Origin: Candidatus Woesearchaeota archaeon
Lineage (GTDB): Archaea; Nanobdellota; Nanobdellia; SCGC-AAA011-G17; UBA489
NCBI GenBank assembly: GCA_964367375.1
Contig: CAYIXG010000001.1
Span: 3,905 to 67,904 of the forward strand
DNA length: 64,000 bases
Reading direction: 5' to 3'
Under the pieces are notes generated by a model. That model was not told where the DNA came from and made no database searches. It was given only the letters and a program-made list of their open reading frames with translations. Of this stretch, positions 1 through 15,148 are shown in pieces. The position numbers and the translations under genes are program-made. Position 1 is the first letter of the stretch. Every line of letters starts with the position of its first letter.

Positions 1-281
1 TTGAAAAAGAACATGGTAATAATTTTCATCTCAGAAGTGTCGTCTCCTGTATTCTGGCCAATTCGATATCGCTGGTACGTTCCTAGTTCTTTGATAAATT
101 CCAATCTTGTTATGCCTGACTCTTCTGCAATTTCTCTTTGTGCGGCAGTAAGGGGTGTTTCTCCATTCTCGATGTGCCCTTTGGGCAATGACCAAGAGAT
201 ACCTTTTTGATTAACTACTAAAACCTGTCCTCTCCTGTTGATTACGACGCCACCAGCGCATGGTGTTTGTTTTGGGTTCAT
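1..281 (-). CDS. NUDIX hydrolase (N-terminal part; gene continues past the left edge)
   Basis: Manual reverse-complement translation from ATG at 281-279 gives [57 protein letters not shown] with a canonical Nudix box (GX5EX7REUXEEXGU). No stop before position 1. Confidence 0.6.
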
Positions 282-320
282 TTAATCACTCAACCATTTT
301 ATGAACGTATGTAAGAGGGA

Positions 321-407
321 TGGTGCAGAGGCCAGGATTCGAACCTGGGAACTCACTAAGAGACAAGCCCCTGAAGCTTGCGCCGTTGACCACTTGGCTA
401 CCTCTGC
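321..407 (-). tRNA. tRNA-Leu(CAG), class II with long variable arm; CCA encoded
   Basis: Revcomp GCAGAGG-TA-GCCAAGTGGTCAACGGC-G-CAAGC-TTCAGGG-GCTTG-TCTCTTAGTGAGTTC-CCAGG-TTCGAAT-CCTGG-CCTCTGC-A-CCA. Perfect acceptor, anticodon and T stems; anticodon CAG; 15-nt variable arm. Confidence 0.8.
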
Positions 408-551
408 AGGAATAGAACAAAAAGTAAATTAAATATATAAAAAGGTATCCTCGAAGAGAAAGGGAATATGTGGTCAAACCAGAGGTTTATAGCCAAAGCT
501 GTAAGATAATAACCTTATTAAAGAAGGACGAATTGGTGTTGAGGGAGAAAA

Positions 552-1895
552 ATGGGTGATCAGGGAAAGCACAGGTATGCTATTATTGTATTGGCTCTCC
601 TTCTTTTAGGAGGCACATACTTTCTTCCCTTGCCATTGCCGCGAGAGGCGCAAGCAACTATTGCTATTACAGTCTTTGCAATGGTTTTATGGATATTTGA
701 GGTTCTTCCGTTATATATCACTGCTCTTGCTGTTGCGGTGTTACTTATCCTCCTCGGGGGGTTTCCTGCAGAAAAAGTATTCGCGCAGTTTTTCGACCGT
801 GTTGTTGTTCTTGTCTTGGGAGGTTTTGTAATTGCGGTGGCGATGCATAAGCATAAGCTGGATGAATATCTTGCATACAAATTATTAGGGAAGTTTAACG
901 TTTCTTCAAAAATGCTGTTGTTAGGGATGATTTTCGTGACAGCATTCCTTTCCATGTGGATGAGCAATTCTGCAGCTGCTGCAATTGCAATGCCGATCGC
1001 GCTTATTGTTCTTGCAAAAAACAAGATGAGGCCGCTGAAATCGAATTTCGGAAAATCAATGGTGCTGGCTGTTGCATATGGAGCGACAATAGGGGGAATA
1101 GGCACTCTTATTGGAAGCACCCCAAATGTGATGACGCAAAAATTTCTGACAGAAAATGGGTTGCAATTTGGATTTCTTGATTGGTTGATCAGGGGTTTTC
1201 CATTCATGGTGGTGATGATAATTATTTGTTGGATTCTTCTTTTTTTGTTTTTTATTCCTGAAAAGAAGAAGGTGAAGATGATCAAACATCCGCACCCATT
1301 CACTGCAAGTCAGAAGAAGGTTGCGGCGATTCTTGCAGGAACAATAATATTATGGATGACTGAGAATGTTCACGGGATTCATAATAGTGTTGTTGCGTTG
1401 ATTCCGGTGGTTCTGCTCTATGTGTTAAACCTTTTGGATGCGCAAGATTTTGGGAAGATTGACTGGGGTTCGTTAGTGCTCATCGGAGGGGGTATTGCGC
1501 TGGGAATGGCGATTGATGTGTCTGGATTGGATGATGTGTTTTCCTCAGGCTTGCACAGTGCGCTTCTCGGAAATTCTTACTTTGTTATATTATTAGCATT
1601 GGCAGGGACAGGGATCCTCATGACGAGCTTTTTGAGTAATACTGCTGCATCTGCAGTGTTAGTTCCTGTGATTACTGTGCTTGCTGCGACATTGGGGTTA
1701 AATGAAACAAATGTTGTTGTTGTGGCTGCAATGGGGGTAAGCCTTGATTTTATTTTCCCGATGGGGACTCCACCCTCTGCGCTTGCGTATGCCACACGAT
1801 ATATTACGATAAAAGACATGATGAAGGCAGGTCTGCTCCTTTCAATACTGGGTGCGTTTGTCCTGGCAGGAATAGCATATTTTACATGGATATAG
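552..1895 (+). CDS. Anion/cation permease of the ArsB/NhaD/CitMHS (DASS-like) superfamily
   Basis: 447-aa polytopic membrane protein with two homologous halves, each with an SNS(A)AAA(I)AMP / GSTPNV-type hairpin motif typical of this transporter superfamily. Confidence 0.5.
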   Translation: MGDQGKHRYAIIVLALLLLGGTYFLPLPLPREAQATIAITVFAMVLWIFEVLPLYITALAVAVLLILLGGFPAEKVFAQFFDRVVVLVLGGFVIAVAMHKHKLDEYLAYKLLGKFNVSSKMLLLGMIFVTAFLSMWMSNSAAAAIAMPIALIVLAKNKMRPLKSNFGKSMVLAVAYGATIGGIGTLIGSTPNVMTQKFLTENGLQFGFLDWLIRGFPFMVVMIIICWILLFLFFIPEKKKVKMIKHPHPFTASQKKVAAILAGTIILWMTENVHGIHNSVVALIPVVLLYVLNLLDAQDFGKIDWGSLVLIGGGIALGMAIDVSGLDDVFSSGLHSALLGNSYFVILLALAGTGILMTSFLSNTAASAVLVPVITVLAATLGLNETNVVVVAAMGVSLDFIFPMGTPPSALAYATRYITIKDMMKAGLLLSILGAFVLAGIAYFTWI

Positions 1896-2023
1896 ATTTT
1901 GAAGAGGTTACACAAGCAGAGGAGAACTCGTAAAAACAGCGGTCCGCATCTTTTTCGATACCATGAAAAAACTATAAACCCACTTTACGGTCAATGTATG
2001 GGTTTACGGCCAAAGCCAGAATA

Positions 2024-2066
2024 ACAGAAACCTTTATATATAACTTCACTTTTCTATTTATAAACA
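2024..2066 (+). promoter_or_regulatory. Archaeal BRE/TATA promoter region upstream of tfb (two TATA-like boxes)
   Basis: Purine-rich ACAGAAACC followed by TTTATATATA (2033-2042), and a second ATTTATAAA at 2056-2064. These sit 55-85 nt upstream of the tfb ATG. Confidence 0.4.
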
Positions 2067-2118
2067 TTGTTATGCTTTAGTACAATAATGGTACTTGTTG
2101 TGGGGGTTGGACACAGGT

Positions 2119-3042
2119 ATGGCAACATATATTAAGAAATGTCCGGAGTGCGGAAGCATTCATCTTTCTATTGATAAGGAAAAGGGAGAAGTCACCTGTA
2201 AAGATTGTGGTCTTGTCATCGAAGAGAAGATGATAGACTTTGGTCAGGAATGGAGGGAGTTTGAGGATTCTGAGGAGAAGCGAAGGCGCACTGGAGCTCC
2301 CATGACATATACGCGTTATGACAGAGGTTTAGGCACAGATATTGGTCAGAAGGGAGATATTTTTCAGTTAAAGGGCAAGGGAATGAACAAGTTCTTCCGC
2401 TTGCGAAAATGGCAGTATCGCATTTCGACCGCTATTGAACGCAATTTGAAGCTCGCTCTTGCAGAATTGAAGAGGGTTGCATCGTATTTGAAACTGCCAA
2501 AATCTGTGGAAGAAGAAGCTGCACGAATTTACACGCTTGCAGTGCAGCGTGGATTAGTAAGAGGCAGATCAATGGAGTCTGTTGTTTCAGGAGCGTTGTA
2601 TGCAGCGTGCAGGCGTCATGAAGTGCCGCGAACATTAGATGAGCTTTCAGAAGCCTCAGGTATTGATAAGAAGGAAGTGGGCAGAACATATCGCTTTATC
2701 ACTAGAGAATTAGGTATTAGAATTCTTCCGAGTAACCCTGTGGATTACATTCCACGCTTTGCATCTGCATTGAAATTAACTGCGGAAACTCAGTCAAAGG
2801 CAGTGGAAATTTTGGAGATGGCGGAAAAATCTGAATTAACTTCAGGTCGTGGTCCGACAGGGATTGCCGCAGCCTCATTGTATGTTGCTGCCTTGATGAA
2901 TAATGAGAAGAGAACGCAGAGGGAAGTAGCAGATATTGCAGGAGTGACTGAAGTGACTATTCGAAACAGATATAAAGAGCTGTTTAAGCGGTTAAAGTTG
3001 AAGGATATGATTAAGGAGAAGAAGAAAAAAGAGGGAGAGTGA
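2119..3042 (+). CDS. tfb: Transcription initiation factor IIB (TFB)
   Basis: N-terminal Zn ribbon CPECGS...CKDCG, followed by two cyclin-fold repeats and a C-terminal HTH (GVTEVTIRNRYKEL). Start taken at the first ATG, MATYIKKCPECG. Confidence 0.9.
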   Translation: MATYIKKCPECGSIHLSIDKEKGEVTCKDCGLVIEEKMIDFGQEWREFEDSEEKRRRTGAPMTYTRYDRGLGTDIGQKGDIFQLKGKGMNKFFRLRKWQYRISTAIERNLKLALAELKRVASYLKLPKSVEEEAARIYTLAVQRGLVRGRSMESVVSGALYAACRRHEVPRTLDELSEASGIDKKEVGRTYRFITRELGIRILPSNPVDYIPRFASALKLTAETQSKAVEILEMAEKSELTSGRGPTGIAAASLYVAALMNNEKRTQREVADIAGVTEVTIRNRYKELFKRLKLKDMIKEKKKKEGE

Positions 3043-3043
3043 T

Positions 3044-3862
3044 GTGCCTATCGGTGCGTTTATTTCGTTAATCAAAAAGAGCGTTGATGACCTCAAGAAG
3101 AATCTCATTGTTCTTGTTCCTGATGCGTTGCAGCTTGTTCTTTTTGTTGTATGTGGGTATATTATTCTGAAGGCAACAGGTATTCTGAATCTATTGTTTG
3201 AGTTAAAAAAGATTGATGATCCATTCCAAGTTCGGCAATTAGTGAGCGCAAACCTCTCCTCGTTTGGCGTTGCCACAATTATCGCAGTCGTGGTGTTCTT
3301 TTTTATCTCTTGTTTTTGTACAGGAATGCTTTTTTCCATGGTGAAGCAGGTCATAGTAAAAAAGAAGTCTTCTCTTCAAGAAGGATTGAAGGGAGGGGCA
3401 GCGTTTTTCTGGAGGATTGCTGCGGTGAAGCTGGTGATGGCGTTGTACGTTGCACTGGTCACCTTTTGTGGTCTTATTCTCCTGGTTCTTTTAAGTTTTG
3501 TCGGGAAGATTATAGGAGCAATTCTTGGCGGTTTATTAATCATTGTTGTGTACTTTTTCATTATAGTGGCATTCTTTTATAGGTACCCTGCGTTGTTCAG
3601 GCACGAAAAAACAGGGATGCAAGCAATGAAGGATGCGTTCACTTTTTTTAAAAAGGATAAGAAGTTTGTTATTGTCACAGCTGCAATCATTTATTTGATG
3701 TTTACAGGAGTCAACATTCTCACACAGTTGTTGCAGTCTGCGTTTGGTCAGGTAGTGGGAGTAACGGTGAGCGTTGTGCTGGGCATCATGATCAGCACGT
3801 GGTCTGCGCTGTTTTTGTATCACGCATATCTTGAAAGCGGGAAGAAGAGCAGCAAAGGTTAG
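3044..3862 (+). CDS. Hypothetical integral membrane protein
   Basis: 272 aa, GTG start right after the tfb stop, with at least 6 predicted TM helices. No recognisable motif. Confidence 0.4.
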   Translation: MPIGAFISLIKKSVDDLKKNLIVLVPDALQLVLFVVCGYIILKATGILNLLFELKKIDDPFQVRQLVSANLSSFGVATIIAVVVFFFISCFCTGMLFSMVKQVIVKKKSSLQEGLKGGAAFFWRIAAVKLVMALYVALVTFCGLILLVLLSFVGKIIGAILGGLLIIVVYFFIIVAFFYRYPALFRHEKTGMQAMKDAFTFFKKDKKFVIVTAAIIYLMFTGVNILTQLLQSAFGQVVGVTVSVVLGIMISTWSALFLYHAYLESGKKSSKG

Positions 3863-4758
3863 ACTCCTTTTGCTTCTCGTCTGAAGAGTGTTCCTTTCTT
3901 GAAGGGAAGGACCCAAGAAACCCAATCATGCAAAGCTTCATAACTTTTATTTGTAGTAAATCTTCCTGATCGAAGCCGTTGTTTGATGCATGCAATCAAG
4001 GCCTCTTCAGAAGAAAGATCCAGGTCTTCTCTAAATTCAGTATACGCAATGCCGATGTCTTCGATCCTATGTGCGTCAGAAACAGCAATAGCTGGTTTTC
4101 GGTGATGATGTGCAAAGATTTGCGCTCTGTCATTTGCTGCTCTGCTGTATTGTCCGAGGAAGGGGAATCGTGAAAGAAAGCGCGGAAGGGTGAGCTGTGC
4201 GTTATGTCCTTCAATGGCATCATACTGCTGCAAAAATCGTTCAAGCAAATCTTCGCCAACGCCTCTATGAAGAGTAACAAACGGATGTTCTGCAATTTGA
4301 ACAAGTCCTCTGTCGCTGCAATAGGTGAGAGTGTCTTGCAGGCTCATATCATTAGGTACACTGTTGCTTCCGATGACGAGATGGTCAATGACGCGGTCGC
4401 CTTCCCTGGCCATAACTGTTTGGCTGTTGACAAAAATGACGCGCTTGAAATCTCCTTCGATGCCAGGCATTTTTTCAACAACAGAGACCTTCTTTCCCAC
4501 ACGATTGTGCGTGTATCCTGGGCGGAGTGTAGAAGTATATCTCCATTGGGTAAGATATCCAAATCGGTCATGGACAGAACCGTGGGGGATTTCGCGCTCT
4601 TGGCTGGTGACTGCGCAGAGGTTTATTCCTCTGGTGATGGCTGCGTCGACAAAGAGCTGGAGCAAGTTTCTGCCCTCGTATCCTTGTGCGCAAAGCCAGT
4701 GGTCTTGAAAGCCAATTGGGCCGTGTGCGTGAAGGTCTGCTTTTACCGTTTCTGTCAT
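3859..4758 (-). CDS. PHP-domain metal-dependent phosphoesterase
   Basis: N-terminal KADLHAHGPIGFQDH (PHP motif I) with further conserved His/Asp downstream (AVSDAHR, HHH). Confidence 0.55.
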   Translation of the reverse strand: MTETVKADLHAHGPIGFQDHWLCAQGYEGRNLLQLFVDAAITRGINLCAVTSQEREIPHGSVHDRFGYLTQWRYTSTLRPGYTHNRVGKKVSVVEKMPGIEGDFKRVIFVNSQTVMAREGDRVIDHLVIGSNSVPNDMSLQDTLTYCSDRGLVQIAEHPFVTLHRGVGEDLLERFLQQYDAIEGHNAQLTLPRFLSRFPFLGQYSRAANDRAQIFAHHHRKPAIAVSDAHRIEDIGIAYTEFREDLDLSSEEALIACIKQRLRSGRFTTNKSYEALHDWVSWVLPFKKGTLFRREAKGV

Positions 4759-4807
4759 GAAAGAAAGAATAAACAGGTATTTTTAAGCATAACTCATAAT
4801 CATAAAA

Positions 4808-5701
4808 TTAAACAGATATTTTCATGAAGTCGTCAGCAGCAATGGTGTGCGGGAATATGGCTGTCGCTTCTGCAAGGAGCTCATCAACGTTTTTGTATCT
4901 CTGGCTAAAGTGGGTTAAGATGAGTTTTTTTGCCTTTGCTTTTTTTGCAATGGTTGCTGCTTGCGCTGCAGTTAAATGCTTGTATTCCTCTGCTTTCTCT
5001 GTGAGCGCTGAGGAGAACGTTGAATCTGCAACAAGGATGTCTGCTTCTTTCGCTGCTTTTGCAATGTTTGCGCAGATGTTTGTATCCAGGATAAACACGA
5101 TTTTCTTTCCTTTTTGAAGAAAGGTTACTTGGTGAGGGGTAATCTTTTTGCCTTTGAAGGTGATAGGTTTTCCCTCTTGGAGTGTGCCAAGAATTGGCCC
5201 TTGAGGAATGCCAATTTTCTTCACATAATCTATGTTTATTTTTCGTTTGTCATGTTCGAGGAAGGTGTATGCAATGCAGGGGATGCTGTGATTGAGGGCG
5301 TGTGCAAGTAAGGAGTAATCTTTGCCAGTGTAAAAAATGCCGTCCTTTGTAATTTCATGTACCTTAATGGGAATTCTTCGCTCTAAAGTGAAGATGGTAA
5401 GGAGTTGAGCAAGTCGTGCCTTTGTTCCTTTTGGTCCGAAGAGTTCAAGTGTTCCGTGGTAGTTGTTCTTTGCAAGGTTCTCAATAAGCCCTGGCAAGCC
5501 AAAGTAATGGTCGCCATGCCAGTGTGTAAGGAGAATTTTGGTGATTTTGGGCGGGGGAAACCCTGCAATGCGCAGTTGCCGCTGCGTGCCTTCGCCGCAG
5601 TCAATAAGAAGGTGTTCATTGGTGTGACTAAGCAAAATGCCGCTGTGGTTGCGGGTTGCCGTTGGCACCATGCTTCCAGTGCCGAGAAAGAGGATTTCCA
5701 T
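4808..5701 (-). CDS. rnz: Ribonuclease Z (tRNA 3'-processing endonuclease, metallo-beta-lactamase fold)
   Basis: MEILFLGTGS...THWHGDHYFGLPGL (HxHxDH), ~297 aa. Start placed at the ATG at 5701 rather than the upstream extension of the six-frame ORF. Confidence 0.8.
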   Translation of the reverse strand: MEILFLGTGSMVPTATRNHSGILLSHTNEHLLIDCGEGTQRQLRIAGFPPPKITKILLTHWHGDHYFGLPGLIENLAKNNYHGTLELFGPKGTKARLAQLLTIFTLERRIPIKVHEITKDGIFYTGKDYSLLAHALNHSIPCIAYTFLEHDKRKINIDYVKKIGIPQGPILGTLQEGKPITFKGKKITPHQVTFLQKGKKIVFILDTNICANIAKAAKEADILVADSTFSSALTEKAEEYKHLTAAQAATIAKKAKAKKLILTHFSQRYKNVDELLAEATAIFPHTIAADDFMKISV

Positions 5702-5734
5702 GGTTTTGTGCAGGGAAACGTTTTTAAATAATTT

Positions 5735-6292
5735 GTGCTTTGCAGGAGGATGTCTGACACAGAAGGAAACCTGGAAAAAGTGAAAGGCACCTTTGCACAG
5801 GGAAGAGTTGTTGCCGAGCACAGAGGTGCGGCAAAGGCGTTGCATACGAAGAGTAGGTTTGGTGAGGTGAAGGATGATAAGGTGAATTATTCATTCATTG
5901 AAGCGTTCTATTTGTTTGAGCAGAATAAGTTGGAAATAAAGGAGGGGAGGAAGAAAGTAACAAAAAAGCAGCTGTTGCAGAGGGCAGAGCAGAAAGAGAA
6001 GAATTTTTGGGTGAGGTATTGCGTCTTTCGCGAGTTGCGGTCTCGCGGCTATATTGTAAAGACAGCGTTAAAGTTCGGTGCAGATTTTCGGGTGTATGAT
6101 AAGGGTGTGAAGCCGGGTGAGGATCATGCGCGGTGGATTGTGTTTCCAGTAAAAGAATCAGAAACATTGACGTGGTATGAGTTGAGCGCGAAGAATCGGG
6201 TTGCGCATTCAACAAGAAAGCACCTTTTAATTGGTGTTGTTGATGAAGAGGATGATGTGACATTTTACGAATCACAGTGGATTCGTCCGTAG
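5735..6292 (+). CDS. endA: tRNA-splicing endonuclease EndA
   Basis: C-terminal catalytic domain KFGADFRVYDKG...HARWIVFPV and NRVAHSTRKHLLIGVVD (conserved Tyr/His/Lys triad region). Size matches the homotetrameric archaeal type; the true start may be the ATG at 5750. Confidence 0.75.
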   Translation: MLCRRMSDTEGNLEKVKGTFAQGRVVAEHRGAAKALHTKSRFGEVKDDKVNYSFIEAFYLFEQNKLEIKEGRKKVTKKQLLQRAEQKEKNFWVRYCVFRELRSRGYIVKTALKFGADFRVYDKGVKPGEDHARWIVFPVKESETLTWYELSAKNRVAHSTRKHLLIGVVDEEDDVTFYESQWIRP

Positions 6293-6309
6293 AAAGAATG
6301 ATATATTTC

Positions 6310-6648
6310 TTAGTCAAGGCAGATGCAGCTTTGAAATCCAAAGTTTCGTGCTTCTCTGAGTGATTGGAAGGATATTCTGTTCTTGGTGTTGATGTCTTCT
6401 GCAAGGGTGCAGTGCACATCGTGTACTTCTCTTGTTTGTTTGTCACCAATGTATGCTCTCATAACTCCTGTGGATTGGAGGAAAACGCGTTCGATGCGTT
6501 CAAGTCTTCGAATGATGTCATATTGTCTATTTTCTAAAGCAATGATGTCATTCTGAACGTAGTGGAATGAGTTCTGTACTTTTTGGTCGAAATGGCGGAG
6601 TTGTTTGGTGATCATCATCGGAGGATTTTGAAAGAGGTTTATAAACAT
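6310..6648 (-). CDS. Hypothetical coiled-coil protein (possibly prefoldin-beta-like)
   Basis: 112 aa with a predicted helix, a beta-hairpin (GVMRAYIGDKQT) and a second helix. Weak resemblance only. Confidence 0.3.
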   Translation of the reverse strand: MFINLFQNPPMMITKQLRHFDQKVQNSFHYVQNDIIALENRQYDIIRRLERIERVFLQSTGVMRAYIGDKQTREVHDVHCTLAEDINTKNRISFQSLREARNFGFQSCICLD

Positions 6649-6755
6649 AACTCATAATAAACGCTTAATAATCATAATATGGGTTAGGGAGAGGAAAAGG
6701 AGCACATAGTGTGGCATCATAATCCTTATAAGACTGCAATCATGTATGCTATAGT

Positions 6756-7574
6756 ATGGAGCCATTGAAAGAGAAAGTGTTGAAGTTTGTGCAGGAGCAC
6801 GGTCCTGCAGTGCCTTTGGAAGTATCAAAAGGGGTCGATCGGGAGAGTATTTTTGTGGGCGCTGTCTTGTCTGATTTGTTATCAAATAAGATGATTAAGA
6901 TTTCGAAAGCGAAGGTGGGTGGCAGTCCCTTGTATTATGCTGCTGGTCAAGAAGAAAATCTGTCAAGGCTCTTTAACTCGCTTCCAGAAAAGGAGAAAGA
7001 GGTGTATAATCTCTTGAAGGAGAAGAAGTTTATTGCAGATGAGGATGCGGAGCCTGCAGTGCGGGTTGCATTGCGGATGTTGCAGGATTTTGCAATGCCT
7101 ATGGAAATGGAAGGGAGGCTATTCTGGAGGTGGCATTTGACGCCGCAAACAGAGTTTAATCTGCAACAGCAAGTGCAGCCAAAAAAGGAGATCATGCAAG
7201 TACAAGAGCAGAAGCAGGTGCGCCTTTTCCCAGTGAAGAAGAGTGTCAAGGATGAGGGAATAGATGATTTTACGAATGTTGTAGATAATTATATCAAGAA
7301 GAATAATATTGTTATACTCAGCAAAGAATATATCAAGAAGAATAGGGAATTAGGAATGATGGTGCAGGTGCCATCAAATGTAGGTTCAATGCAGATGTAC
7401 CTCCTTGCAAAGAATAAGAAAACAATTACAGATAATGACATGATTCTTGCATACAATAGGGGGAATGAAAAAAAGCTGCCAACGCTCTTTTTGACTGCAG
7501 GAACGGTCACAAAGAAGGCAGAAATGTACAAGGAAAAGAATTTAAAAGGGTATGTGATCATACGCTCGTTATGA
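6756..7574 (+). CDS. Hypothetical protein with N-terminal winged-helix-like domain
   Basis: The N-terminal ~70 aa (VLKFVQEHGPAVPLEVSKGVDRE...) look like a wHTH; the rest is Lys-rich and uncharacterised. Confidence 0.35.
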   Translation: MEPLKEKVLKFVQEHGPAVPLEVSKGVDRESIFVGAVLSDLLSNKMIKISKAKVGGSPLYYAAGQEENLSRLFNSLPEKEKEVYNLLKEKKFIADEDAEPAVRVALRMLQDFAMPMEMEGRLFWRWHLTPQTEFNLQQQVQPKKEIMQVQEQKQVRLFPVKKSVKDEGIDDFTNVVDNYIKKNNIVILSKEYIKKNRELGMMVQVPSNVGSMQMYLLAKNKKTITDNDMILAYNRGNEKKLPTLFLTAGTVTKKAEMYKEKNLKGYVIIRSL

Positions 7575-8422
7575 AGAAGCAGGTTGTGTTCTTTGTTTTC
7601 TGGATGCTAGTCTTTACTGCAACTGCTTTTGGTGCAGTAGATAATATTGTTGATTATCTGCTGAAGATGGATGATCAGTATTATCTTGTTGTGGGTGCTG
7701 AAGGCAAAGGAGAAGATGTCTTTGCAGCCTCTGAAATTGCTGCAGCGATGAAGAAGGATTTTTCCGTTGATTTGCAAATTGGCGTTGAAGGGAAGGTAAG
7801 CGCAAAGGTAAGCAAGATTCTTGTTGGTCATCCCTGTGATAATAAGTTGATTGATCTGCCCTGTGATGATTGGCCATATAATGAGGGAGAAGCGCTCATA
7901 AAGATGATTGGGAATGATTTGATTATTGCAGGATCAACCCCTGAGGACACGAGGCGTGCAGCAGAAGTGATCACGCATTACAAAGATTTTCCGTTGTTGG
8001 AAAAACAGAAAGAGGTCATTGTGAAGGGAGACTCTTTGGAATATCAACTGCTTATTCTAGAGCCAGTGAAGAAGCAGTCCGAGTTTGTGTGCGGTGATAA
8101 TGTGTGTGAAACAGGAGAAAAAGTGTTTTGTTTTGCTGATTGCTTGCAAAAGAGCTGTTATGTATTGTGTGCAGAGCAGAAATTCGCGCAGTCCTTTTGT
8201 CGAAATGTGAAATCAAATCCGAATGTTCCTTCCTGTTTGTCTGGGGAAAGTGATTTTGGTGGAGGATATTGTGCGAATAAGATGACCTGCTGTTGTTTTA
8301 CTCCTTCTGCAGAGCCTGTGCAAGAGGAGCAGCAGGAACTTCCAGCAACCGAAGAGCCAAAAAAGAGTTTGCTCCAATGGCTGTTGAATGCAATCAAAGA
8401 GTTTTTTGCTATTCTTTTTTGA
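7571..8422 (+). CDS. Secreted protein with S-layer-like N-terminal domain and Cys-rich C-terminal region
   Basis: Signal peptide, then LVVGAEGKGEDVFAASEIAAAM, which resembles the archaeal S_layer_N domain. The C-terminal half has ~15 Cys. Confidence 0.4.
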   Translation: MKKQVVFFVFWMLVFTATAFGAVDNIVDYLLKMDDQYYLVVGAEGKGEDVFAASEIAAAMKKDFSVDLQIGVEGKVSAKVSKILVGHPCDNKLIDLPCDDWPYNEGEALIKMIGNDLIIAGSTPEDTRRAAEVITHYKDFPLLEKQKEVIVKGDSLEYQLLILEPVKKQSEFVCGDNVCETGEKVFCFADCLQKSCYVLCAEQKFAQSFCRNVKSNPNVPSCLSGESDFGGGYCANKMTCCCFTPSAEPVQEEQQELPATEEPKKSLLQWLLNAIKEFFAILF

Positions 8423-8427
8423 CATAA

Positions 8428-8730
8428 TCAGTTACTTAAACTAGTTTCTTCTTTGTAAGAGGGTGGTCCTCTGCTTCTGATGACATGGTATCTTGTTTCA
8501 ACAGTATAAATCTGTCCTTGGGGAAGATCATCAAAGAATTCTTGTAAAAAAATATCAATCTTTTTTGCAATGCCTTCTTCGCGAACATCACACACGTGCA
8601 GTCCAAAAATGTCATGCCGTGCGTCAATATCATCATAATGGATGCCGCGGCGAATGTTTCTCTCTTCTAATGCCTGCTGTGCCTTCTGTGCATATCCTAT
8701 GAGTTCAGGATGGAAGAGTTTAGCGTCCAT
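8428..8730 (-). CDS. Hypothetical protein
   Basis: ~100-aa ORF starting MDAKLFHPELIGYAQK with good codon usage. No motif recognised. Confidence 0.35.
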   Translation of the reverse strand: MDAKLFHPELIGYAQKAQQALEERNIRRGIHYDDIDARHDIFGLHVCDVREEGIAKKIDIFLQEFFDDLPQGQIYTVETRYHVIRSRGPPSYKEETSLSN

Positions 8731-8837
8731 AGATATCACTTTTCTTTCAAGAAACACTTTTTGGAAGCTTTTTAAAATTTTCTTGTGTATAGTGAATCAG
8801 AAAAAGAAAGAGATCTACTTAAGGATGGGTAGGGAAA

Positions 8838-8848
8838 CGTTTTTAAAG
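8838..8848 (+). promoter_or_regulatory. TATA-like box upstream of the tRNA-Asn / tRNA pair
   Basis: GTTTTTAAAGA, ~28 nt upstream of the tRNA 5' end at 8874. Confidence 0.3.
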
Positions 8849-8873
8849 AAACCTCGCTGTTTTTTGATGCAGT

Positions 8874-8960
8874 GCCTCGGTAGCTCAGCTCGGTAGAGCA
8901 CGTGGCTGTTATAAACCAGCAGATACCACGCGGTCGAAGGTTCAAATCCTTCCTGAGGCG
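8874..8960 (+). tRNA. tRNA-Asn(GUU) with a 13-nt canonical anticodon-loop intron
   Basis: GCCTCGG-TA-GCTC-AGCTCGGTA-GAGC-A-CGTGG-CTGTTA[t aaaccagcagat]a-CCACG-CGGTC-GAAGG-TTCAAAT-CCTTC-CTGAGGC-G. All stems pair; the mature molecule would be 74 nt. Confidence 0.7.
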
Positions 8961-8963
8961 GAT

Positions 8964-9100
8964 GGGCCGGTAGCTCAGCCTGGCTGGAGCACAGGAATGA
9001 AAATTGAAATTCCGCTCTATCGACTGATAGCATCAGGTCAGGCATCGAGAGTATCAACAGATACCGATAAAGGTCGGAGGTTCAAATCCTCTCCGGCCCA
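8964..9100 (+). tRNA. Intron-containing tRNA gene, isotype unresolved (137 nt; ~62 nt of intervening sequence)
   Basis: Perfect acceptor stem GGGCCGG/CCGGCCC+A, canonical D arm TAGCTCAGCCTGGCTGGAGC, and T arm GGAGG-TTCAAAT-CCTCT. The 84 nt between them cannot be folded by eye into one anticodon arm plus a single 37/38 intron. The gene sits 3 nt after tRNA-Asn. Confidence 0.5.
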
Positions 9101-9103
9101 CTC

Positions 9104-9111
9104 TTTTTTTT
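9104..9111 (+). terminator. Oligo-T (T8) archaeal terminator after the tRNA pair
   Basis: CTCTTTTTTTTAG immediately downstream of the tRNA 3' end. Confidence 0.4.
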
Positions 9112-9222
9112 AGAAAAATTCTACAGCCTACAGGATCATAAATAAACAGTGTTTGATTAATAATAAGGAAGAAGAAATAAGTAAATAGCATATAAAAATG
9201 AGGAATCTTTTTAAAGAGGATC

Positions 9223-9894
9223 ATGAATCTCAAGATAAAGGCGGGGATGATGCACATACAGCTTCATGATAAGAGGAATAATATCATCGCAGTCATTGTA
9301 TTAGTCATGCTTTTTATTGGTGCAATTGTACTTCTAATACAGTTTGGTCCTGAAGTTGCAAACATTCAAGGAGGGAAAAGAGAAGGATATACTGAACTGA
9401 CTGAGATAGATATGAGAGTAGTAAATGAGTTGCATGCAAATGAGCTCACAATACTCGGAATAAAACTAGGTGATACGGCAGAGGACGTGAAGAAGAGGAA
9501 AGGTAATCCGGATAAGATAGGGCAGAAGAATGATGGTTCTGAAAGATGGGAGTTTGGAGCAAGCATAGGCCTTGAAAAAACAGGGATGATACTTACTGTA
9601 AAGGATGGAAAAGTTGCAAGAATCATGCTTCTTCCATCGTTCAACAAGCTATTGAAAGGTGATCCCCTTCTGGGAGTGATGACAAAGAATGAAATGTATG
9701 CATGGCTGGGTGCTCCGGAAGAATTCTTTTTTCGGCAGGTGTCATCTTCAAGCGCGCGTGTGTATCGAGAATATCAGTATCAAGAAAAAGGATTCATTAT
9801 TAATATTTTGAGTGGTGATGTGGTAAGCGTTGGATTCACTTCTTACTTTGACGGGAAATCAGATTTAACGAGTGGTGTGCAGGTTACTTCGTAG
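9223..9894 (+). CDS. Hypothetical membrane-anchored protein
   Basis: 223 aa with one N-terminal TM helix (IIAVIVLVMLFIGAIVLLI) and a hydrophilic C-terminal domain. Confidence 0.35.
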   Translation: MNLKIKAGMMHIQLHDKRNNIIAVIVLVMLFIGAIVLLIQFGPEVANIQGGKREGYTELTEIDMRVVNELHANELTILGIKLGDTAEDVKKRKGNPDKIGQKNDGSERWEFGASIGLEKTGMILTVKDGKVARIMLLPSFNKLLKGDPLLGVMTKNEMYAWLGAPEEFFFRQVSSSSARVYREYQYQEKGFIINILSGDVVSVGFTSYFDGKSDLTSGVQVTS

Positions 9895-11374
9895 AAGATG
9901 CATGCTTTGGAAATAAATTTTCTACTGTACAAATGGGTTTTCCTGTGGGAAGGAGGCCAAATTTCACATCGTCATAATTGCCGCATCCAATAGCAAGGAA
10001 GGTGTTGATTTTGCCACTTGTTTCGGGAATAAAAGGGCTTAAGAGAATGCCAATGATTCTGATGGCATCAAGCACATTATACAAGACTTCATTCCGGTCT
10101 TTCGCGTTTTCCCAGGGTTTTCGTTCGTTGATATATTTATTTACCTCATGCACAAAATCCCAGATGGTTGCGAGCGCGTGGTGAAGTTCATATATTTTCA
10201 TGTGCTTCTCTATTTTTTTCAAGTTTAGTTTTTCAACCAGTTCGCCATCCGGCTCTCCTTCAGGAATTTTTCCTTGGCAATGCTTCACGACAAGGGATTG
10301 TGTTCTGCTAATCAAATTTCCTAAGTCGTTTGCAAGCTCGTTGTTCAATCTGTTTTTCAGTGCCTCTTCGTTGAAGTCGCCATCTTCATGAACAGGTATT
10401 TCTCGAATGAGGAAATAGCGGAGTGCATCGCTTCCATAGGTGTGGATGAGTGGAAAAGGGTCAATGCTTGTGCCTGTCGATTTTGAAACTTTTTTTCCAT
10501 TGACAGTTAAGTATCCATGAACAAGGATGGTTTTTGGAGGTTGAGCGTCAATGCCTAATAAAATTGCTGGCCAAATGACTGAATGGAACCAGTTGATGCC
10601 TTTTCCAATAACCTGGATGTTTGCAGGCCAGTATTTTTTGTATGCGTCACCATCAGGATATCCGAGAGCAGTGATATAATTGCTTAACGCATCGATCCAG
10701 ACGTAAATAGTATGTGTTTCATCTCCAGGCACTGGAATTCCCCATTGTGCATGCATTCTACTGACACACAAATCTTTCAATCCTTCAGTTTGCAAACGTT
10801 GCAGCATCTCTTTTCGTTTTCCTTCTGGAAAGACAAATTGTTTTGATTCAAGCAATGCATGTATCTTACTCTCATACTTGCTCATCTTGAAGAAATAGCT
10901 TTCTTGCTCAATCCATTCTGGTACTTTGTCATGCTCAGGACATTTTTTATTGACAAGGTCTTTTTCAGTGATATATGCCTCGCAGCCAGTGCAGTAGTAT
11001 CCTTTGTAGACTCCCTTGTAAATGTCTCCTTTGGAAAGAAGAGTGGTAAATATAGCTTGTGCGATTTTCACGTGCCTTTTTTCAGTTGTTTTAATAAAAT
11101 CATCATGAGAAATATGAAGCTCGGTGCAAAGCTGTTGAAAGATTTTTGAGTTTTGATTGACAAATGCTTGAGTAGGAATGCTAGCTGCTTGCGCTGCTTG
11201 CTCATTCTTTTGAGCATTCTCATCTGTGCCTGTGAGGAAGAAAACATCATCTCCCTTCAGGCGGTGCCATCGTGCAAGAACGTCTGCAATAACCTTCTCA
11301 TAGGCATGTCCAATATGGGGGCGAGCATTCACGTAGTCAATTGCTGTGGTGATATAGAAGGTTTTTGAAGGCAT
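9884..11374 (-). CDS. metG: Methionyl-tRNA synthetase
   Basis: Class I aaRS motifs HIGH (PHIGHAYE) and KMSKS (KVSKSTG), a connective peptide with CxxC, and a MetRS-specific anticodon-binding helical domain. Confidence 0.9.
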   Translation of the reverse strand: MPSKTFYITTAIDYVNARPHIGHAYEKVIADVLARWHRLKGDDVFFLTGTDENAQKNEQAAQAASIPTQAFVNQNSKIFQQLCTELHISHDDFIKTTEKRHVKIAQAIFTTLLSKGDIYKGVYKGYYCTGCEAYITEKDLVNKKCPEHDKVPEWIEQESYFFKMSKYESKIHALLESKQFVFPEGKRKEMLQRLQTEGLKDLCVSRMHAQWGIPVPGDETHTIYVWIDALSNYITALGYPDGDAYKKYWPANIQVIGKGINWFHSVIWPAILLGIDAQPPKTILVHGYLTVNGKKVSKSTGTSIDPFPLIHTYGSDALRYFLIREIPVHEDGDFNEEALKNRLNNELANDLGNLISRTQSLVVKHCQGKIPEGEPDGELVEKLNLKKIEKHMKIYELHHALATIWDFVHEVNKYINERKPWENAKDRNEVLYNVLDAIRIIGILLSPFIPETSGKINTFLAIGCGNYDDVKFGLLPTGKPICTVENLFPKHASSTK

Positions 11375-11458
11375 AATGTCATGTGAAAGAGAATACTTTA
11401 TATCTTTTTCTCTGGAAGCAAAACGTTAAAAAAGAACGGTTCTTCAGTAAGAAGCCGT

Positions 11459-11531
11459 GCGGTAGTAGTCCAACCTGGCAAGACACGACCTTCCCACGGT
11501 CGCGATGCGGGTTCAAATCCCGCCTGCCGCG
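11459..11531 (+). tRNA. tRNA-Gly(CCC)
   Basis: GCGGTAG-TA-GTCC-AACCTGGCA-AGAC-A-CGACC-TTCCCAC-GGTCG-CGAT-GCGGG-TTCAAAT-CCCGC-CTGCCGC-G. The acceptor has one G-U pair. Confidence 0.7.
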
Positions 11532-11535
11532 CTTC

Positions 11536-11607
11536 GGGCCCGTAGTCTATCGGCATGACGCCACCTTCACACGGTGGAGGTAGCAAGTTCAATTCTTGCC
11601 GGGCCCA
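11536..11607 (+). tRNA. tRNA-Val(CAC)
   Basis: GGGCCCG-TA-GTCT-ATCGGCA-TGAC-G-CCACC-TTCACAC-GGTGG-AGGTA-GCAAG-TTCAATT-CTTGC-CGGGCCC-A. Lies 4 nt after tRNA-Gly. Confidence 0.75.
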
Positions 11608-11683
11608 TTCTTTTTCGAAAGAGGCGAAAGAGTTTTGGTTAGTAAGAAGAAAAATCTAATAAGAATTGTAGTTCTACAACGTT

Positions 11684-11881
11684 ATGGAACCAAATAAAAT
11701 GAACACGGTAGCTACAGCAGTGATAGCATTTACGGCAATTTCTGGTCTGATGGTAGGCTTATATTTTAATCTAAAAATGATAAATAGTAAGATGATACAC
11801 ATCCTTATATCAGAATCTTTATTAATAGTGATAATCTATCTTTTTATATGGTGGATTTTGGTGAAAGTGAAAAATGAATAA
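11684..11881 (+). CDS. Small hydrophobic ORF in an AT-rich stretch (doubtful)
   Basis: 65 aa with two predicted TM helices. A second 32-aa hydrophobic ORF follows at 11877-11975. The local GC is ~30%. Confidence 0.2.
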   Translation: MEPNKMNTVATAVIAFTAISGLMVGLYFNLKMINSKMIHILISESLLIVIIYLFIWWILVKVKNE

Positions 11882-12080
11882 AGTCATAGAATGGTTAAAA
11901 AATAATTGGCAAATTATCCTAGTAATAATTTTGGTTCTGTACCTAATCACAAGACTTCAGGTACCTACGTAATGTATGTTTTTTTAAATATATAAACTAA
12001 GGTACTTGTATTCTTGTAAGCAGATAACCACTATCAAAGAAGTACTCACGCCAGCTGATTTAAGATTGTAATTGTCGGAA

Positions 12081-13382
12081 TTATTTCTTTCCTAAACTTT
12101 TCAGCCATCGTAAGAATGCGTTGAAGAATCCTGGCTCGACGCATACTTCTCCTTTGCAGAGATTGGTAGAACATTCAAAGTTGTTGCTGCATGAGCTATC
12201 AACAGGGAGTTGTTCAAGGACGTCTCCTTCGAGAGAACAGAATGTTGTTTCTTTCCGTGTGCCTACAGTCAAACACGCGTAATTATTTTCTGTGTCGTAG
12301 CATCCTTCGCAAGGATCAAGGCACATGTTATATTTTTCTGGACAAGAATTGGAGACACATTCAAAATCGTTTTTGCATGTTTGTGTTTTTTCTTTTTGTG
12401 CAGCAAATTGGTTGTCAAGCCCGCAGTAGTAGCCGTTTTCCCGATATGCAAAGGGAACACATCTGTTATCTGCAGTCATGCATCCACTGCATCCTTGTGT
12501 TCCAAGGGTGTATGAAATGCCTGGTGTATTGATACAATTGGCTTCAACGACAGCACTTCCCATGCCGCGGCAGGTGAACTGCCAGTTTGTGAAGGGAGCT
12601 GTACTTCCTAAACCTCCATAGCCACTTAACGGCGGCCTATTTTCGTATCCTGTGGATCCTGCTTCATTGCAGCCACCTTGTCCTCCAAGTGCTATTTCTC
12701 CACTACCACAAGATGCGATTGCGCTGTACGGTTCATACACTTCTGGAGTGTATTGCTGTTTTTGTTCAAAGATGTGGTGCAGAATGGTTGTTTCTTTTGG
12801 CACGCAAAATGCCTCGACTTCTGCTTTTCCTTCTCCCGCGCATCCTGCCATCCACCCTTGCAATTCATAATAGCCGTATCCTGTTGAGGTGCCGATGCGT
12901 TGGATGCCATTAGATACAGTCATGACAATTGCATTGTTTCCTGCTGGAATGCAGCGTGCTTGTCCTCCGATGGCAATTTCATTGGTGTTGCAGTTGGATT
13001 CTGCAAAGTAGGAGTTGTCATATCTTCCAGGGTTTGTGGAGGGGGTGCGAATGCCTGCTGTTGATGGCACTGTTCCTGAAGTTGCAACGCGATAGGAGAG
13101 TGAAGATCGTGGTGCACATAATGCCTGCACAAGTGCAACGCCGTCTCCAGTGCAAGTGACTTCCCATCCTTTTCCTCCAGGGAGGGATGTGCTTGATTGG
13201 AGCACTGCTCCTTGTGCTGTTTGTGTTCCTAATTGTCTGCATTCGACAGTTGCTCCGATTGCTATTTCATCTGATTCACAGAGGGATTGTGCGGTGAAAA
13301 TTTGTGCGGAAACAATGGCACTAAAAAGAACAATAAAAATGCTTATAGTAGAGAGGATTAATTTCATAAAATAAAGAATCAA
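12081..13382 (-). CDS. Secreted Cys-rich repeat protein (three ~85-aa CxxxEIA(I/L)GG repeats plus EGF-like C-terminal Cys knots)
   Basis: Signal peptide, then repeats SLCESDEIAIGATVEC / SNCNTNEIAIGGQARC / ASCGSGEIALGGQGGC. Each repeat ends ...(A/F)(L/F)C(A/V/I)(P/N), and a tail carries ~20 Cys. Confidence 0.5.
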   Translation of the reverse strand: MILYFMKLILSTISIFIVLFSAIVSAQIFTAQSLCESDEIAIGATVECRQLGTQTAQGAVLQSSTSLPGGKGWEVTCTGDGVALVQALCAPRSSLSYRVATSGTVPSTAGIRTPSTNPGRYDNSYFAESNCNTNEIAIGGQARCIPAGNNAIVMTVSNGIQRIGTSTGYGYYELQGWMAGCAGEGKAEVEAFCVPKETTILHHIFEQKQQYTPEVYEPYSAIASCGSGEIALGGQGGCNEAGSTGYENRPPLSGYGGLGSTAPFTNWQFTCRGMGSAVVEANCINTPGISYTLGTQGCSGCMTADNRCVPFAYRENGYYCGLDNQFAAQKEKTQTCKNDFECVSNSCPEKYNMCLDPCEGCYDTENNYACLTVGTRKETTFCSLEGDVLEQLPVDSSCSNNFECSTNLCKGEVCVEPGFFNAFLRWLKSLGKK

Positions 13383-13412
13383 AGAGGGTTTATTAAAGTA
13401 GTGGTGAGAGAA

Positions 13413-14339
13413 TTAAACGTCAACTTCTTTTGGAAGTGCAAAGGTCATGTCTTCAGTGGTAGTAGTAAGTGTTTCAACAGCAGCATGTGGGTATCTCAAT
13501 TTCAAGGCATCAATTGTTTCTTGGACTGCTGCTTCTAATGCAGATGCGCCTGCAGTGATTCCAATAATATGCACTTCATCCATCCAATGATAATCAATGG
13601 CAGTTGCATCAGGAATGAGATGTGCCTGAACGCCTCTATTGATTGCAGTTTCCACTAATCTGTTGGAGTTTGAGCTGGTAGTATCTCCAAGCACGAGGAT
13701 AAGTTGTGCGCGTTCTGCAAGTGCCTTGACAGAATCTTGCCTGTTTTGGGTTGCGTAGCAAATGTCATCAGTGCGGGGTGCACGAATGTTTGGAAACCGT
13801 CTGCAAAGTGCTGCAATAATGTTTCTTGTATCATCAACAGAGAGGGTTGTTTGAGTTAAATACGCAACCTTATCATGATTTGGAAGAGTAACTTTTTCAG
13901 CGTCAGCAACTGTTTCAATGAGAATCATAGGTGCATACCCCATGGTGCCGATAACTTCTTGGTGTTTTTTATGGCCAATAAGAAGAAGAGAATATCCATC
14001 GCGGTTGTAGCGAAGCGCTTCTAAGTGCACTTTTGTCACGAGAGGGCATGTTGCATCAATCATTTTGAGTTCGCGTGCTGCTGCTTCCTCTTTGACATTG
14101 GGGGAAGTGCCGTGTGCGCTGAAGATGATAAGGTTGCCAGCAGGTACTTGACCAAGAGTATCAACAAAAACAGCTCCTTTCTGTTCAAGCTCATGAATGA
14201 CTCGCTCATTATGAACTATGTGGTGTCGTACATACACAGGTGTTCCATAAATCGTGAGTGCGCGTTCAACAGTTTCAACTGCTCGTTCCACTCCTGCGCA
14301 GAATCCTCTGGGTTCTGCAAGCAATATTTTCTCAACCAT
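13413..14339 (-). CDS. ispH: 4-hydroxy-3-methylbut-2-enyl diphosphate reductase (IspH/LytB)
   Basis: Full-length 308 aa. PRGFCAGVERAV, SAHG, ATCPLVTKVH and TTSSNSNRL match the IspH core, and the three Fe-S Cys ligands are in the conserved positions. Confidence 0.85.
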   Translation of the reverse strand: MVEKILLAEPRGFCAGVERAVETVERALTIYGTPVYVRHHIVHNERVIHELEQKGAVFVDTLGQVPAGNLIIFSAHGTSPNVKEEAAARELKMIDATCPLVTKVHLEALRYNRDGYSLLLIGHKKHQEVIGTMGYAPMILIETVADAEKVTLPNHDKVAYLTQTTLSVDDTRNIIAALCRRFPNIRAPRTDDICYATQNRQDSVKALAERAQLILVLGDTTSSNSNRLVETAINRGVQAHLIPDATAIDYHWMDEVHIIGITAGASALEAAVQETIDALKLRYPHAAVETLTTTTEDMTFALPKEVDV

Positions 14340-14382
14340 AATAAATGAAACAAATGAGTAAGATTTTTAAAAGTAGTGAAAG

Positions 14383-14457
14383 CGCTCCCGACGAGATTTG
14401 AACTCGTGTTCCAAGCTCGAGAAGCTCGTGTCCTAGACCGGACTAGACGACGGGAGC
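14383..14457 (-). tRNA. tRNA-Glu(CUC)
   Basis: Revcomp GCTCCCG-TC-GTCT-AGTCCGGTCTA-GGAC-A-CGAGC-TTCTCGA-GCTTG-GAAC-ACGAG-TTCAAAT-CTCGT-CGGGAGC-G. Confidence 0.75.
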
Positions 14458-14510
14458 ATGGTCTTTAATCTCTAAAAGATGTTTAAAAAAGTATTGGAAC
14501 AAAGCACTCT

Positions 14511-14942
14511 TTATTCGCAAATAAACTCACATTTGGTGTTGGTTAAAACTCCGTCTTTTGTTGTTTGAACATTAATTCCGGGAAAAGGAAGGTTACTAGG
14601 GATCTTTTTAGAAACAGGATCACAAGGGCCTTTACATTCTATGGTACAAACAACTTTCCCTTTATGTCCTCCTGGACAGGTATAAGGTGTTGTTTCAGTA
14701 TATGGTTTTGATCCAGCAATAACACAATCACATGCAATACCTGTAGGTGCTGGTCCTACACGTTGGAGAGGTTGCGGTGCTGGTCGTGTGCTGGGTTGAG
14801 TGGTGGTAACTTGTTGTCCGGTAATAAAATCTGAATAATAATTTGAGGTGAAAGAAGCTGTAGGGTTAAGGAATGATAAGAAAAATGCGAGAACAATAAG
14901 TGTAATAATAAGCACAAAATGGTGATACCCTCTTTTTTCCAT
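14511..14942 (-). CDS. Small secreted Cys-rich protein
   Basis: 143 aa with a signal/anchor helix, then a Pro/Thr linker and 8 Cys (CDCVIAG...CPGGHKGKVVCTIECKGPCD...CEFIC). Confidence 0.35.
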   Translation of the reverse strand: MEKRGYHHFVLIITLIVLAFFLSFLNPTASFTSNYYSDFITGQQVTTTQPSTRPAPQPLQRVGPAPTGIACDCVIAGSKPYTETTPYTCPGGHKGKVVCTIECKGPCDPVSKKIPSNLPFPGINVQTTKDGVLTNTKCEFICE

Positions 14943-14984
14943 ACTCTTTCTTTTATATTGAAGTATTTAAATATTATGAAAAAG

Positions 14985-15086
14985 TAGCCCCGGGAGGATT
15001 TGAACCTCCGTCAGCGGAGCCAGAGTCCGCTATCCTTGGTCCATTAACCGTTTGGAGCTAATGTTAGACCGCTAGACTACGGGGCT
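14985..15086 (-). tRNA. tRNA-Gln(CUG) with a probable ~29-nt non-canonical intron in the D-loop
   Basis: Revcomp AGCCCCG-TA-GTCT-[agcggtctaacattagctccaaacggttaatggaccaa]-GGAT-A-GCGGA-CTCTGGC-TCCGC-TGAC-GGAGG-TTCAAAT-CCTCC-CGGGGCT-A. A1:U72 with A73 (the archaeal Gln signature), a perfect anticodon arm, and the extra sequence located between the D-stem halves. Confidence 0.5.
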
Positions 15087-15148
15087 ATGTGACTGAAGGG
15101 GAACAGCAAACGTTAATAAACATTTCTCACAAGTGAAGAGGGGTTGCA

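Follow-up and report, generated by a model that had tools for sequence, protein, structure and literature searches.

A tRNA-Gln(CUG) gene of a Woesearchaeota-like archaeon with a predicted 29-nucleotide D-loop intron of relaxed bulge-helix-bulge type

The locus described here lies in a 64-kb stretch of DNA (64,000 nt of contig CAYIXG010000001.1; henceforth the window) from a tiny DPANN archaeon of the Woesearchaeota or, in GTDB terms, Nanoarchaeota kind, the contigs of which come from 0.1-µm-filtered Hainich groundwater (aquifer well H51). The closest named homologues of its tRNA-splicing endonuclease, EndA, are labelled Woesearchaeota or Nanoarchaeota. Its minus strand carries, from 15086 to 14985, a tRNA-Gln(CUG) gene whose D loop is interrupted (Table 1), and we consider it very probable that this is a functional gene with a 29-nt intron of the bulge-helix-bulge (BHB) type that is spliced by EndA. 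The 102-mer reads AGCCCCG UA GUCU AGCGGUCUA-(ACAUUAGCUCCAAACGGUUAAUGGACCAA)-GGAU A GCGGA CUCUGGC UCCGC UGAC GGAGG UUCAAAU CCUCC CGGGGCU A, with the intron in parentheses. As read from the sequence, the acceptor stem has 7 bp without a mismatch, starting with A1:U72, and A73 serves as the discriminator. The anticodon arm is likewise free of mismatches, the variable region comprises 4 nt, and the T arm has the standard form. The traits by which tRNA-Gln was assigned, namely, an anticodon CUG or UUG together with A1:U72 and A73, are thus all present, as they are in the tRNA-Gln genes of all relatives considered below. The D-stem strands GUCU and GGAU are separated by 38 nt, a distance made up of a 9-nt D loop and 29 extra nucleotides. 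An earlier note on this DNA had already recognized these tRNA features and the 38-nt spacing and had placed an intron of about 29 nt in the D loop rather than in the anticodon loop; in line with this, removal of 29 nt restores a 73-nt tRNA-Gln(CUG). Independent assemblies of the community in this aquifer (L001 and L002/L007) contain the same 102 nt without a single difference, and the sequence is therefore not an assembly artefact.

The surroundings of the gene match its full length. A TATA-like box stands at the matching distance upstream of every other tRNA transcription unit in the window, and T runs like the one that directly follows the gene trail other tRNA genes; the positions of the promoter box and of the T run therefore fit the full-length gene. 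ARAGORN and Rfam scans of the window revealed no second tRNA-Gln(CUG), and no further copy of the intron sequence occurs in it within 7 mismatches. The D loop in the 5' exon ends in GGUCUA, like the D loop of the host's own tRNA-Glu.

Both the minimum free energy (MFE) structure and the centroid structure of the 102-mer consist of the cloverleaf plus an intron motif. Within the D region, the elements follow one another in the order D stem, 3x2 internal loop (AGC versus AA), central helix GGUC-GACC, bulge UAA, and 8-bp hairpin CAUUAGCU-GGUUAAUG. The fold energy of the precursor is -42.3 kcal/mol (z = -2.97 versus shuffles), and the pair probabilities of GGUC/GACC are 0.98. The hairpin ATTAG/TTAAT described in the earlier note exists but is longer than was thought, since these strands belong to the 8-bp helix CAUUAGCU/GGUUAAUG. 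The 3-nt bulge between the central helix and the intron helix h' constitutes the H-B-h' half of a BHB motif at the 5' splice site. Splice sites were assigned by the BHB rule, under which the precursor is cut 2 nt 3' of each of the two strands that form the 4-bp central helix; in canonical BHB introns, the helix involves nucleotides 32 to 35 and the cut falls at 37/38 (PMC4090602). For the present precursor, the rule predicts cuts at GGUC-UA↓A and GACC-AA↓G (arrows, splice sites), excises exactly 29 nt (15064..15036), and joins AGCGGUCUA to GGAU, with the predicted spliced junction AGCGGUCUA↓GGAUAGCGG. The adjacent adenosines leave the naming of the site ambiguous, 20b/21 or 21/22, and the product is the same under either name. 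ARAGORN draws the spliced 73-mer as a tRNA-Gln(CUG) without flaws, in which the D stem has 4 bp and the D loop 9 nt, and U8, A14, G18 G19, A21, and the T loop UUCAAAU are all present.

A chance origin of the motif is unlikely. When the insert was shuffled, a central helix arose at the required place in 2% of cases and a central helix with a flush intron helix of 4 bp or more at a frequency of 1.6e-4, while a central helix with a flush 8-bp helix, as observed, was found in 0 of 200,000 shuffles.

The window itself supplies internal controls. A tRNA-Ile(GAU) gene on the plus strand (Table 1) contains three introns, of 27 nt at 27/28 (central helix GAGC/GCUC), 14 nt at 37/38 (CUGA/UCAG), and 21 nt at 43/44 (AUCG/CGAU). 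In its unspliced form this gene scores 35.6 bits in Rfam and is missed by ARAGORN, and all three introns are resolved by the cut rule, showing that the host carries further introns at noncanonical positions and that the rule predicts junctions correctly. The rule also fits the canonical introns of the window's tRNA-Asn and of the tRNA-Gln of a relative, L003. An Rfam E-value scan revealed no further disrupted tRNAs in the window. The tRNA-Asn(GUU) gene ends 3 nt upstream of tRNA-Ile(GAU), and given this spacing the two are probably cotranscribed.

The same tRNA was then compared across relatives (Table 1). At the syntenic locus of L010, the intron-less tRNA-Gln(CUG) is identical to the window exons at all stem positions and differs only at four unpaired positions. 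Exon-anchored DNA pattern scans produced a single match in a genome collection and three in a metagenome collection; a D-loop intron was present in 0 of 1 and 1 of 3 of these, respectively, the latter being the 17-nt intron of L011. That intron forms a BHL-like (bulge-helix-loop) motif and permits two registers, one leaving 9 nt in the D loop and the other 11 nt. Among loci found through homologues of the neighbouring DUF7560 protein, synteny was mostly lost, and L022/L023 and L027 were informative. The L022/L023 tRNA-Gln(CUG) has an intron with the motif AGC-GGCC-AA↓A-UUAG-UUAAAU-CUAA-GGCU-AA↓-GCAC, its MFE structure shows the same motif as the window gene, and the tRNA-Glu(CUC) of L022 reads GGUC-AA↓A-UUAAU...AUUAG-GAUC-AA↓. 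Both give clean tRNAs when spliced in silico, and neither is reported by Rfam at E <= 0.1. A single tRNA thus displays intron turnover among close relatives, with no intron, an intron at 37/38, introns at 29/30 and 37/38, or an intron in the D loop.

Three introns at the same site could be compared directly, namely, those of the window tRNA-Gln, the L022 tRNA-Gln, and the L022 tRNA-Glu. The L022 bulge AA↓A sits where the window has UA↓A, and the L022 central helices GGCC/GGCU (Gln) and GGUC/GAUC (Glu) covary with GGUC/GACC of the window. Across the three, 97% of the cells pair and 6 of 12 pairs have changed on both sides, which was equalled by none of 500 shuffles and by no slid register. The three keep their structure rather than their sequence. 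Pairwise intron alignments show weak similarity, from which common descent does not follow. The similar D-loop introns that relatives carry in tRNA-Gln and in tRNA-Glu may have arisen by transposition from one Glx tRNA to the other, but the weak sequence similarity gives this little backing.

A comparative search with the downstream 143-aa open reading frame (ORF; 14511-14942) gave a single homologue, 53% identical, located on three short, independently assembled contigs (L004, around 990-1075, L005, and L006), where it is preceded by a chimeric tRNA-like sequence and not by a tRNA-Gln. In this chimera, the 5' ~62 nt are similar to tRNA-Glu(CUC) and the final ~12 nt to the 3' end of tRNA-Gln. 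Its possible origins include recombination across the T loop that both tRNAs share and a misassembly, and it may also be an odd or split tRNA.

The endonuclease that would be required is encoded in the window. The ORF that the earlier note had named as EndA contains both Pfam endonuclease domains (PF01974, N-terminal, and PF02778, catalytic), matches TIGR00324 endA with 121 bits, and retains the catalytic Tyr, His, and Lys, which are invariant in the alignment (A1) with its homologues. Its best match in the PDB is the catalytic subunit of Nanoarchaeum equitans (3iey_A; 2.9e-36), with the M. kandleri and M. jannaschii enzymes next in rank. Many of the homologues in the alignment have Lys-rich N-terminal tails. 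EndA has a divergent neighbour, an RNase Z gene (4808-5845, minus strand; TIGR02651, 323 bits), and the two form a small tRNA-processing pair. The RNase Z match begins only at about residue 49 of its ORF, and the true starts of the two genes are for this reason probably nonoverlapping.

Several observations weigh against an EndA-spliced D-loop intron. The 3' splice site has no clean 3-nt bulge and falls within a 3x2 internal loop adjoining the D stem, so that the bulge flanked by two helices that defines a strict hBHBh' motif is absent there. A strict conformer can be forced with the outer helix CUAGC/GAUAG, at -26.1 versus -42.3 kcal/mol, that is, at a cost of about 16 kcal/mol, and is unlikely to be the dominant fold. 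Because the 5' half is canonical but the 3' site falls in an internal loop, the motif is of the relaxed HBh' type rather than a strict BHB, which is one of the two relaxed forms (hBH or HBh') that the earlier note had suggested looking for at the junctions. The covariation count comes from three sequences only, in an alignment trimmed by hand to structural segments. As for the enzyme, EndA and 10 Woesearchaeota/Nanoarchaeota homologues are colinear with the strict α4 EndA of M. jannaschii. They do not have the 6-residue basic insert of N. equitans (YDKGVKPGEDH versus YDIGVIPKKGKRSEREH; the L3 insert, residues 90-98, was located by the residue numbers in PMC3488258), and the alignment shows neither a crenarchaeal CSL-like nor an ARMAN ASL-like insert in any of them. 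No second EndA subunit or paralogue was found in the 64-kb window, and RtcB was not found among its larger ORFs, which were those checked. PMC5829648, PMC3241643, and PMC3488258 credit the cleavage of relaxed or noncanonically placed introns to the CSL/L1, ASL/L2, and L3 loops, and by these published rules, cutting of a relaxed D-loop motif by an EndA of this sequence would not be guaranteed. L3 has been stated to be widespread in DPANN, which is not reconciled with the L3-less EndA described here.

On the strength of the sequence, its fold, the restored cloverleaf, the features that are conserved or covary among relatives, and the EndA gene in the window, we infer that the precursor is cleaved and ligated and that the product is used in translation, along the following path. 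The gene would be transcribed from its own TATA-like promoter and the transcript would end at the oligo-T run. In the precursor, G18, G19, U20, and C20a are predicted to form the 4-bp central helix with GACC, which lies towards the 3' end of the intron. This would place the 5' splice site UA↓A in the 3-nt bulge between this helix and the 8-bp intron hairpin; the 3' splice site AA↓G would fall in the internal loop by the D stem, 2 nt beyond the 3' end of the other strand. EndA would cleave both sites, and an RtcB-type ligase (not found among the window ORFs checked) would join A21 to G22. The resulting 73-nt tRNA would have the D loop AGCGGUCUA, with G18 and G19 freed for the D/T-loop elbow.

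We consider it quite improbable that the intron is real but has junctions other than those given by the cut rule. Two alternatives, each also removing 29 nt, bear consideration, namely, GGUC↓UAAC...GACC↓AAGGAU, which leaves the D loop AGCGGUCAA, and AGCGG↓UCUAAC...AAUGGA↓CCAAGGAU, which leaves AGCGGCCAA. Both products are D loops that relatives actually have (AGCGGUCAA in L010 and L011; AGCGGCCAA in L003, L009, and L022), and all junction variants keep a D loop of 9 nt. However, the alternative sites depart from the geometry in which a 4-bp helix is followed by the cut 2 nt further 3', as seen in the three tRNA-Ile introns, in the canonical intron of L003, and in PMC4090602, and the second of them cuts within the central helix, the pairs of which have a probability of 0.98. 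The tRNA-Glu of the host, with its D loop likewise ending in GGUCUA, also argues against them, and the junction sequence that would speak against them is GGUCUAGGAU. The choice between these junctions is the main residual uncertainty concerning the mature sequence (U or A at 20b).

That the locus is a tRNA pseudogene, with a 29-nt insertion that is never removed, is less probable still, and we give it very little credence. Such a reading would account for the poor, truncated gene (31.1 bits) that is all the tRNA finders deliver, and it would sit easily with an EndA without known broad-specificity loops; moreover, a relative carries a seemingly rearranged Glu/Gln chimera at the orthologous place, so tRNA genes there can decay. 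Against this, the exon stem positions all match those of the intact L010 orthologue, the insert has precise HBh' geometry, and its architecture, with compensatory changes, is kept in the tRNA-Gln and tRNA-Glu of L022. The promoter box and terminator are both present, and the window contains no other tRNA-Gln(CUG). A functional gene with an EndA-spliced D-loop intron remains the preferred reading.

Conventional gene finders present the locus differently. ARAGORN and Rfam both report only a truncated, mismatched gene at 14984/5..15059, in which the insert piece AGCUCCA serves as a false acceptor strand, and the Rfam score of 31.1 bits lies close to the gathering score of 29. The idea that this call represents the real tRNA-Gln, with a 27-nt leader, or that the gene belongs to another isotype (Trp or Ile) has next to no probability: although the intron segment does pair, imperfectly, with the 3' strand of the acceptor and two programs make the call, the acceptor stem would contain an A.C mismatch and a G.U pair, the D stem would be 3 bp and wobble rich, the score of 31 bits compares with 54-66 bits for the window's other uninterrupted, single-exon tRNAs and 66.8 bits for the intron-less L010 orthologue, and the TATA-like box would lie ~55-63 nt upstream of the start rather than ~27-36 nt. 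The heptamer CTCCAAA, which the earlier note had warned could pass for a tRNA-Trp anticodon loop, is indeed misleading, as its RNA form CUCCAAA lies partly within and partly beside the loop of the intron hairpin and its flanks, AUUAG and CGGUU, form no 5-bp stem, and hence no anticodon arm of 5 bp and 7 nt, around it. No better fold as tRNA-Trp or another isotype was obtained; in its canonical-intron mode, ARAGORN folded the 102-mer only as a tRNA-Ile(AAU) with an 8-nt intron and mismatches in three arms (D, anticodon, and extra).

All of the D-loop-intron tRNAs seen here are truncated or missed by ARAGORN and Rfam: in Rfam, the window tRNA-Gln (31 bits) and the L011 gene (29.9 bits) are both truncated, and the two L022 genes are unreported. 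For annotation, this means that DPANN genomes would seem to have damaged or absent tRNA-Gln and tRNA-Glu genes, and such apparently "missing" tRNAs affect completeness estimates and claims of host dependence.

Introns of this kind have precedents. For tRNA-Glu(UUC) of Methanopyrus kandleri, PMC5829648 describes an HBh' D-loop intron at 20b/21, a mature tRNA detected by RNA sequencing, and cleavage in vitro by a broad-specificity EndA. That precursor resembles the present one in having a relaxed HBh' D-loop intron at the equivalent place of a Glx-family tRNA, with D-loop nucleotides sequestered. It differs in that M. kandleri is a hyperthermophilic euryarchaeon with an (αβ)2 EndA and its tRNA-Glu(UUC) bears an additional canonical intron, whereas the window comes from a mesophilic groundwater DPANN host, the tRNA is Gln(CUG), the D-loop intron stands alone, and one EndA is seen in the 64 kb. 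The tRNA-Thr(UGU) of Aeropyrum pernix likewise has an intron in the D loop, which is matured in vivo and cleaved in vitro; EndA alone suffices for this, with no guide RNA or modification, although cleavage is slower than that of anticodon-loop introns (PMC3241643). That intron is a canonical BHB according to the authors, its enzyme is of the CSL-bearing (αβ)2 type, and the strict A. fulgidus enzyme hardly cuts it (PMC3241643); the window EndA, unlike the A. pernix enzyme, has no CSL-like insert. Introns outside the anticodon loop are known from Crenarchaeota (Thermoproteales), Nanoarchaeota, ARMAN, and others, for example at 20/21, 22/23, 25/26, and 29/30, and BHB, hBH, and HBh' introns are transplantable to a wide range of sites in tRNAs and are gained and lost even between close relatives (PMC4090602). 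The three-intron tRNA-Ile of the window and the varied intron positions of tRNA-Gln among relatives resemble such multi-intron archaeal tRNAs, the difference from the Thermoproteales, Nanoarchaeota, and ARMAN cases being the Woesearchaeota-like lineage. In a survey from 2018 that covered one Woesearchaeota genome, Kaneta et al. reported increased tRNA-gene disruption in DPANN; we found no published description of this particular intron in the literature.

The intron would work like known relaxed archaeal D-loop introns, and the mechanism is not new; the host lineage adds a case, by which a mesophilic Woesearchaeota-like lineage joins the organisms with noncanonical tRNA introns. A broader generalization, that Woesearchaeota-like DPANN archaea process relaxed (HBh' or BHL) introns at noncanonical positions, including the sterically awkward D loop, with a loop-less α-type EndA, and that Glx intron transposition occurs besides, is speculative, and we regard it as rather unlikely. 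If it were true, the handling of relaxed introns by a loop-less EndA would represent a further, undescribed route to the recognition of relaxed substrates. The HBh' D-loop intron and the loop-less α-type EndA form a pair suited to testing the L1/L2/L3 rule of broad specificity.

Table 1. Positions of the features discussed, in window numbering unless another contig is named; arrows mark predicted splice sites
Feature	Position	Strand	Remarks
Pre-tRNA-Gln(CUG) gene, complete, 102 nt	14985..15086	minus	Mature 5' end 15086, A73 at 14985, CCA not encoded
5' exon, pre-tRNA nt 1-22	15065..15086	minus	Acceptor 5' strand, U8 A9, D-stem GUCU, D loop AGCGGUCUA
Intron, 29 nt, ACAUUAGCUCCAAACGGUUAAUGGACCAA, pre-tRNA nt 23-51	15036..15064	minus	Site 21/22 (same product as 20b/21); junctions from BHB cut rule
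3' exon, pre-tRNA nt 52-102	14985..15035	minus	D-stem GGAU, anticodon arm, variable region, T arm, acceptor 3' strand, A73
Anticodon CUG	15023..15021	minus	
Central BHB helix, 5' strand GGUC (including G18 G19 of D loop)	15067..15070	minus	Partner GACC 15041..15038
Central BHB helix, 3' strand GACC (intronic)	15038..15041	minus	Followed by AA↓, 3' splice site
3-nt bulge UA↓A, 5' splice site	15064..15066	minus	MFE and centroid structures
Intron hairpin h', CAUUAGCU / GGUUAAUG, 8 bp, loop CCAAAC	15042..15063	minus	MFE and centroid structures; shuffles
TATA-like box TTTATTAA, context GAAATGTTTATTAACG	15113..15120	minus	~27-36 nt upstream of 15086
Oligo-T run, likely archaeal terminator	14979..14983	minus	Directly after A73-C
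EndA, presumed excising endonuclease	5735..6292	plus	Probable start ATG 5750, giving 180 aa
tRNA-Ile(GAU), 137 nt, three introns	8964..9100	plus	Cut rule gives a 75-nt product called tRNA-Ile(GAU) by ARAGORN
tRNA-Asn(GUU), canonical 14-nt intron	8874-8960		
L010 tRNA-Gln(CUG), no intron			Syntenic (CutA1 and DUF7560 gene adjacent); D loop AGCGGUCAA; Rfam 66.8 bits
L003 / L009 tRNA-Gln(CUG)			Another DPANN genome, same site; only a canonical 15-nt intron at 37/38
L027 tRNA-Gln(CUG)	L027 251-353	minus	DUF7560 homologue locus, Hainich well H41; introns of ~15 nt at 29/30 and 15 nt at 37/38; D loop uninterrupted
L011 tRNA-Gln(CUG)	L011 4514-4603	minus	Exon-pattern match, AT-rich relative, JGI Ga0209542; 17-nt D-loop intron ~2 nt upstream of window site
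L022 / L023 tRNA-Gln(CUG)	L022 1043-1136	minus	Syntenic; two independent assemblies, ERZ4903072 / ERZ27254763 (ENA); 21-nt D-loop intron at window's site
L022 tRNA-Glu(CUC), also in L023	L022 540-638	minus	24-nt D-loop intron, same HBh' design and site

Two other genes in the window deserve mention. A LytB/IspH homologue (13413-14339, minus strand; Pfam LYTB, 300 bits) adjoins the tRNA-Glu gene; archaea normally use the mevalonate pathway, and its presence in an archaeal genome is therefore unusual. On the plus strand, a single 452-aa ORF (31593-32951) matches both the small and the large subunits of archaeal/eukaryotic DNA primase and appears, from these matches, to be a fused PriS-PriL.

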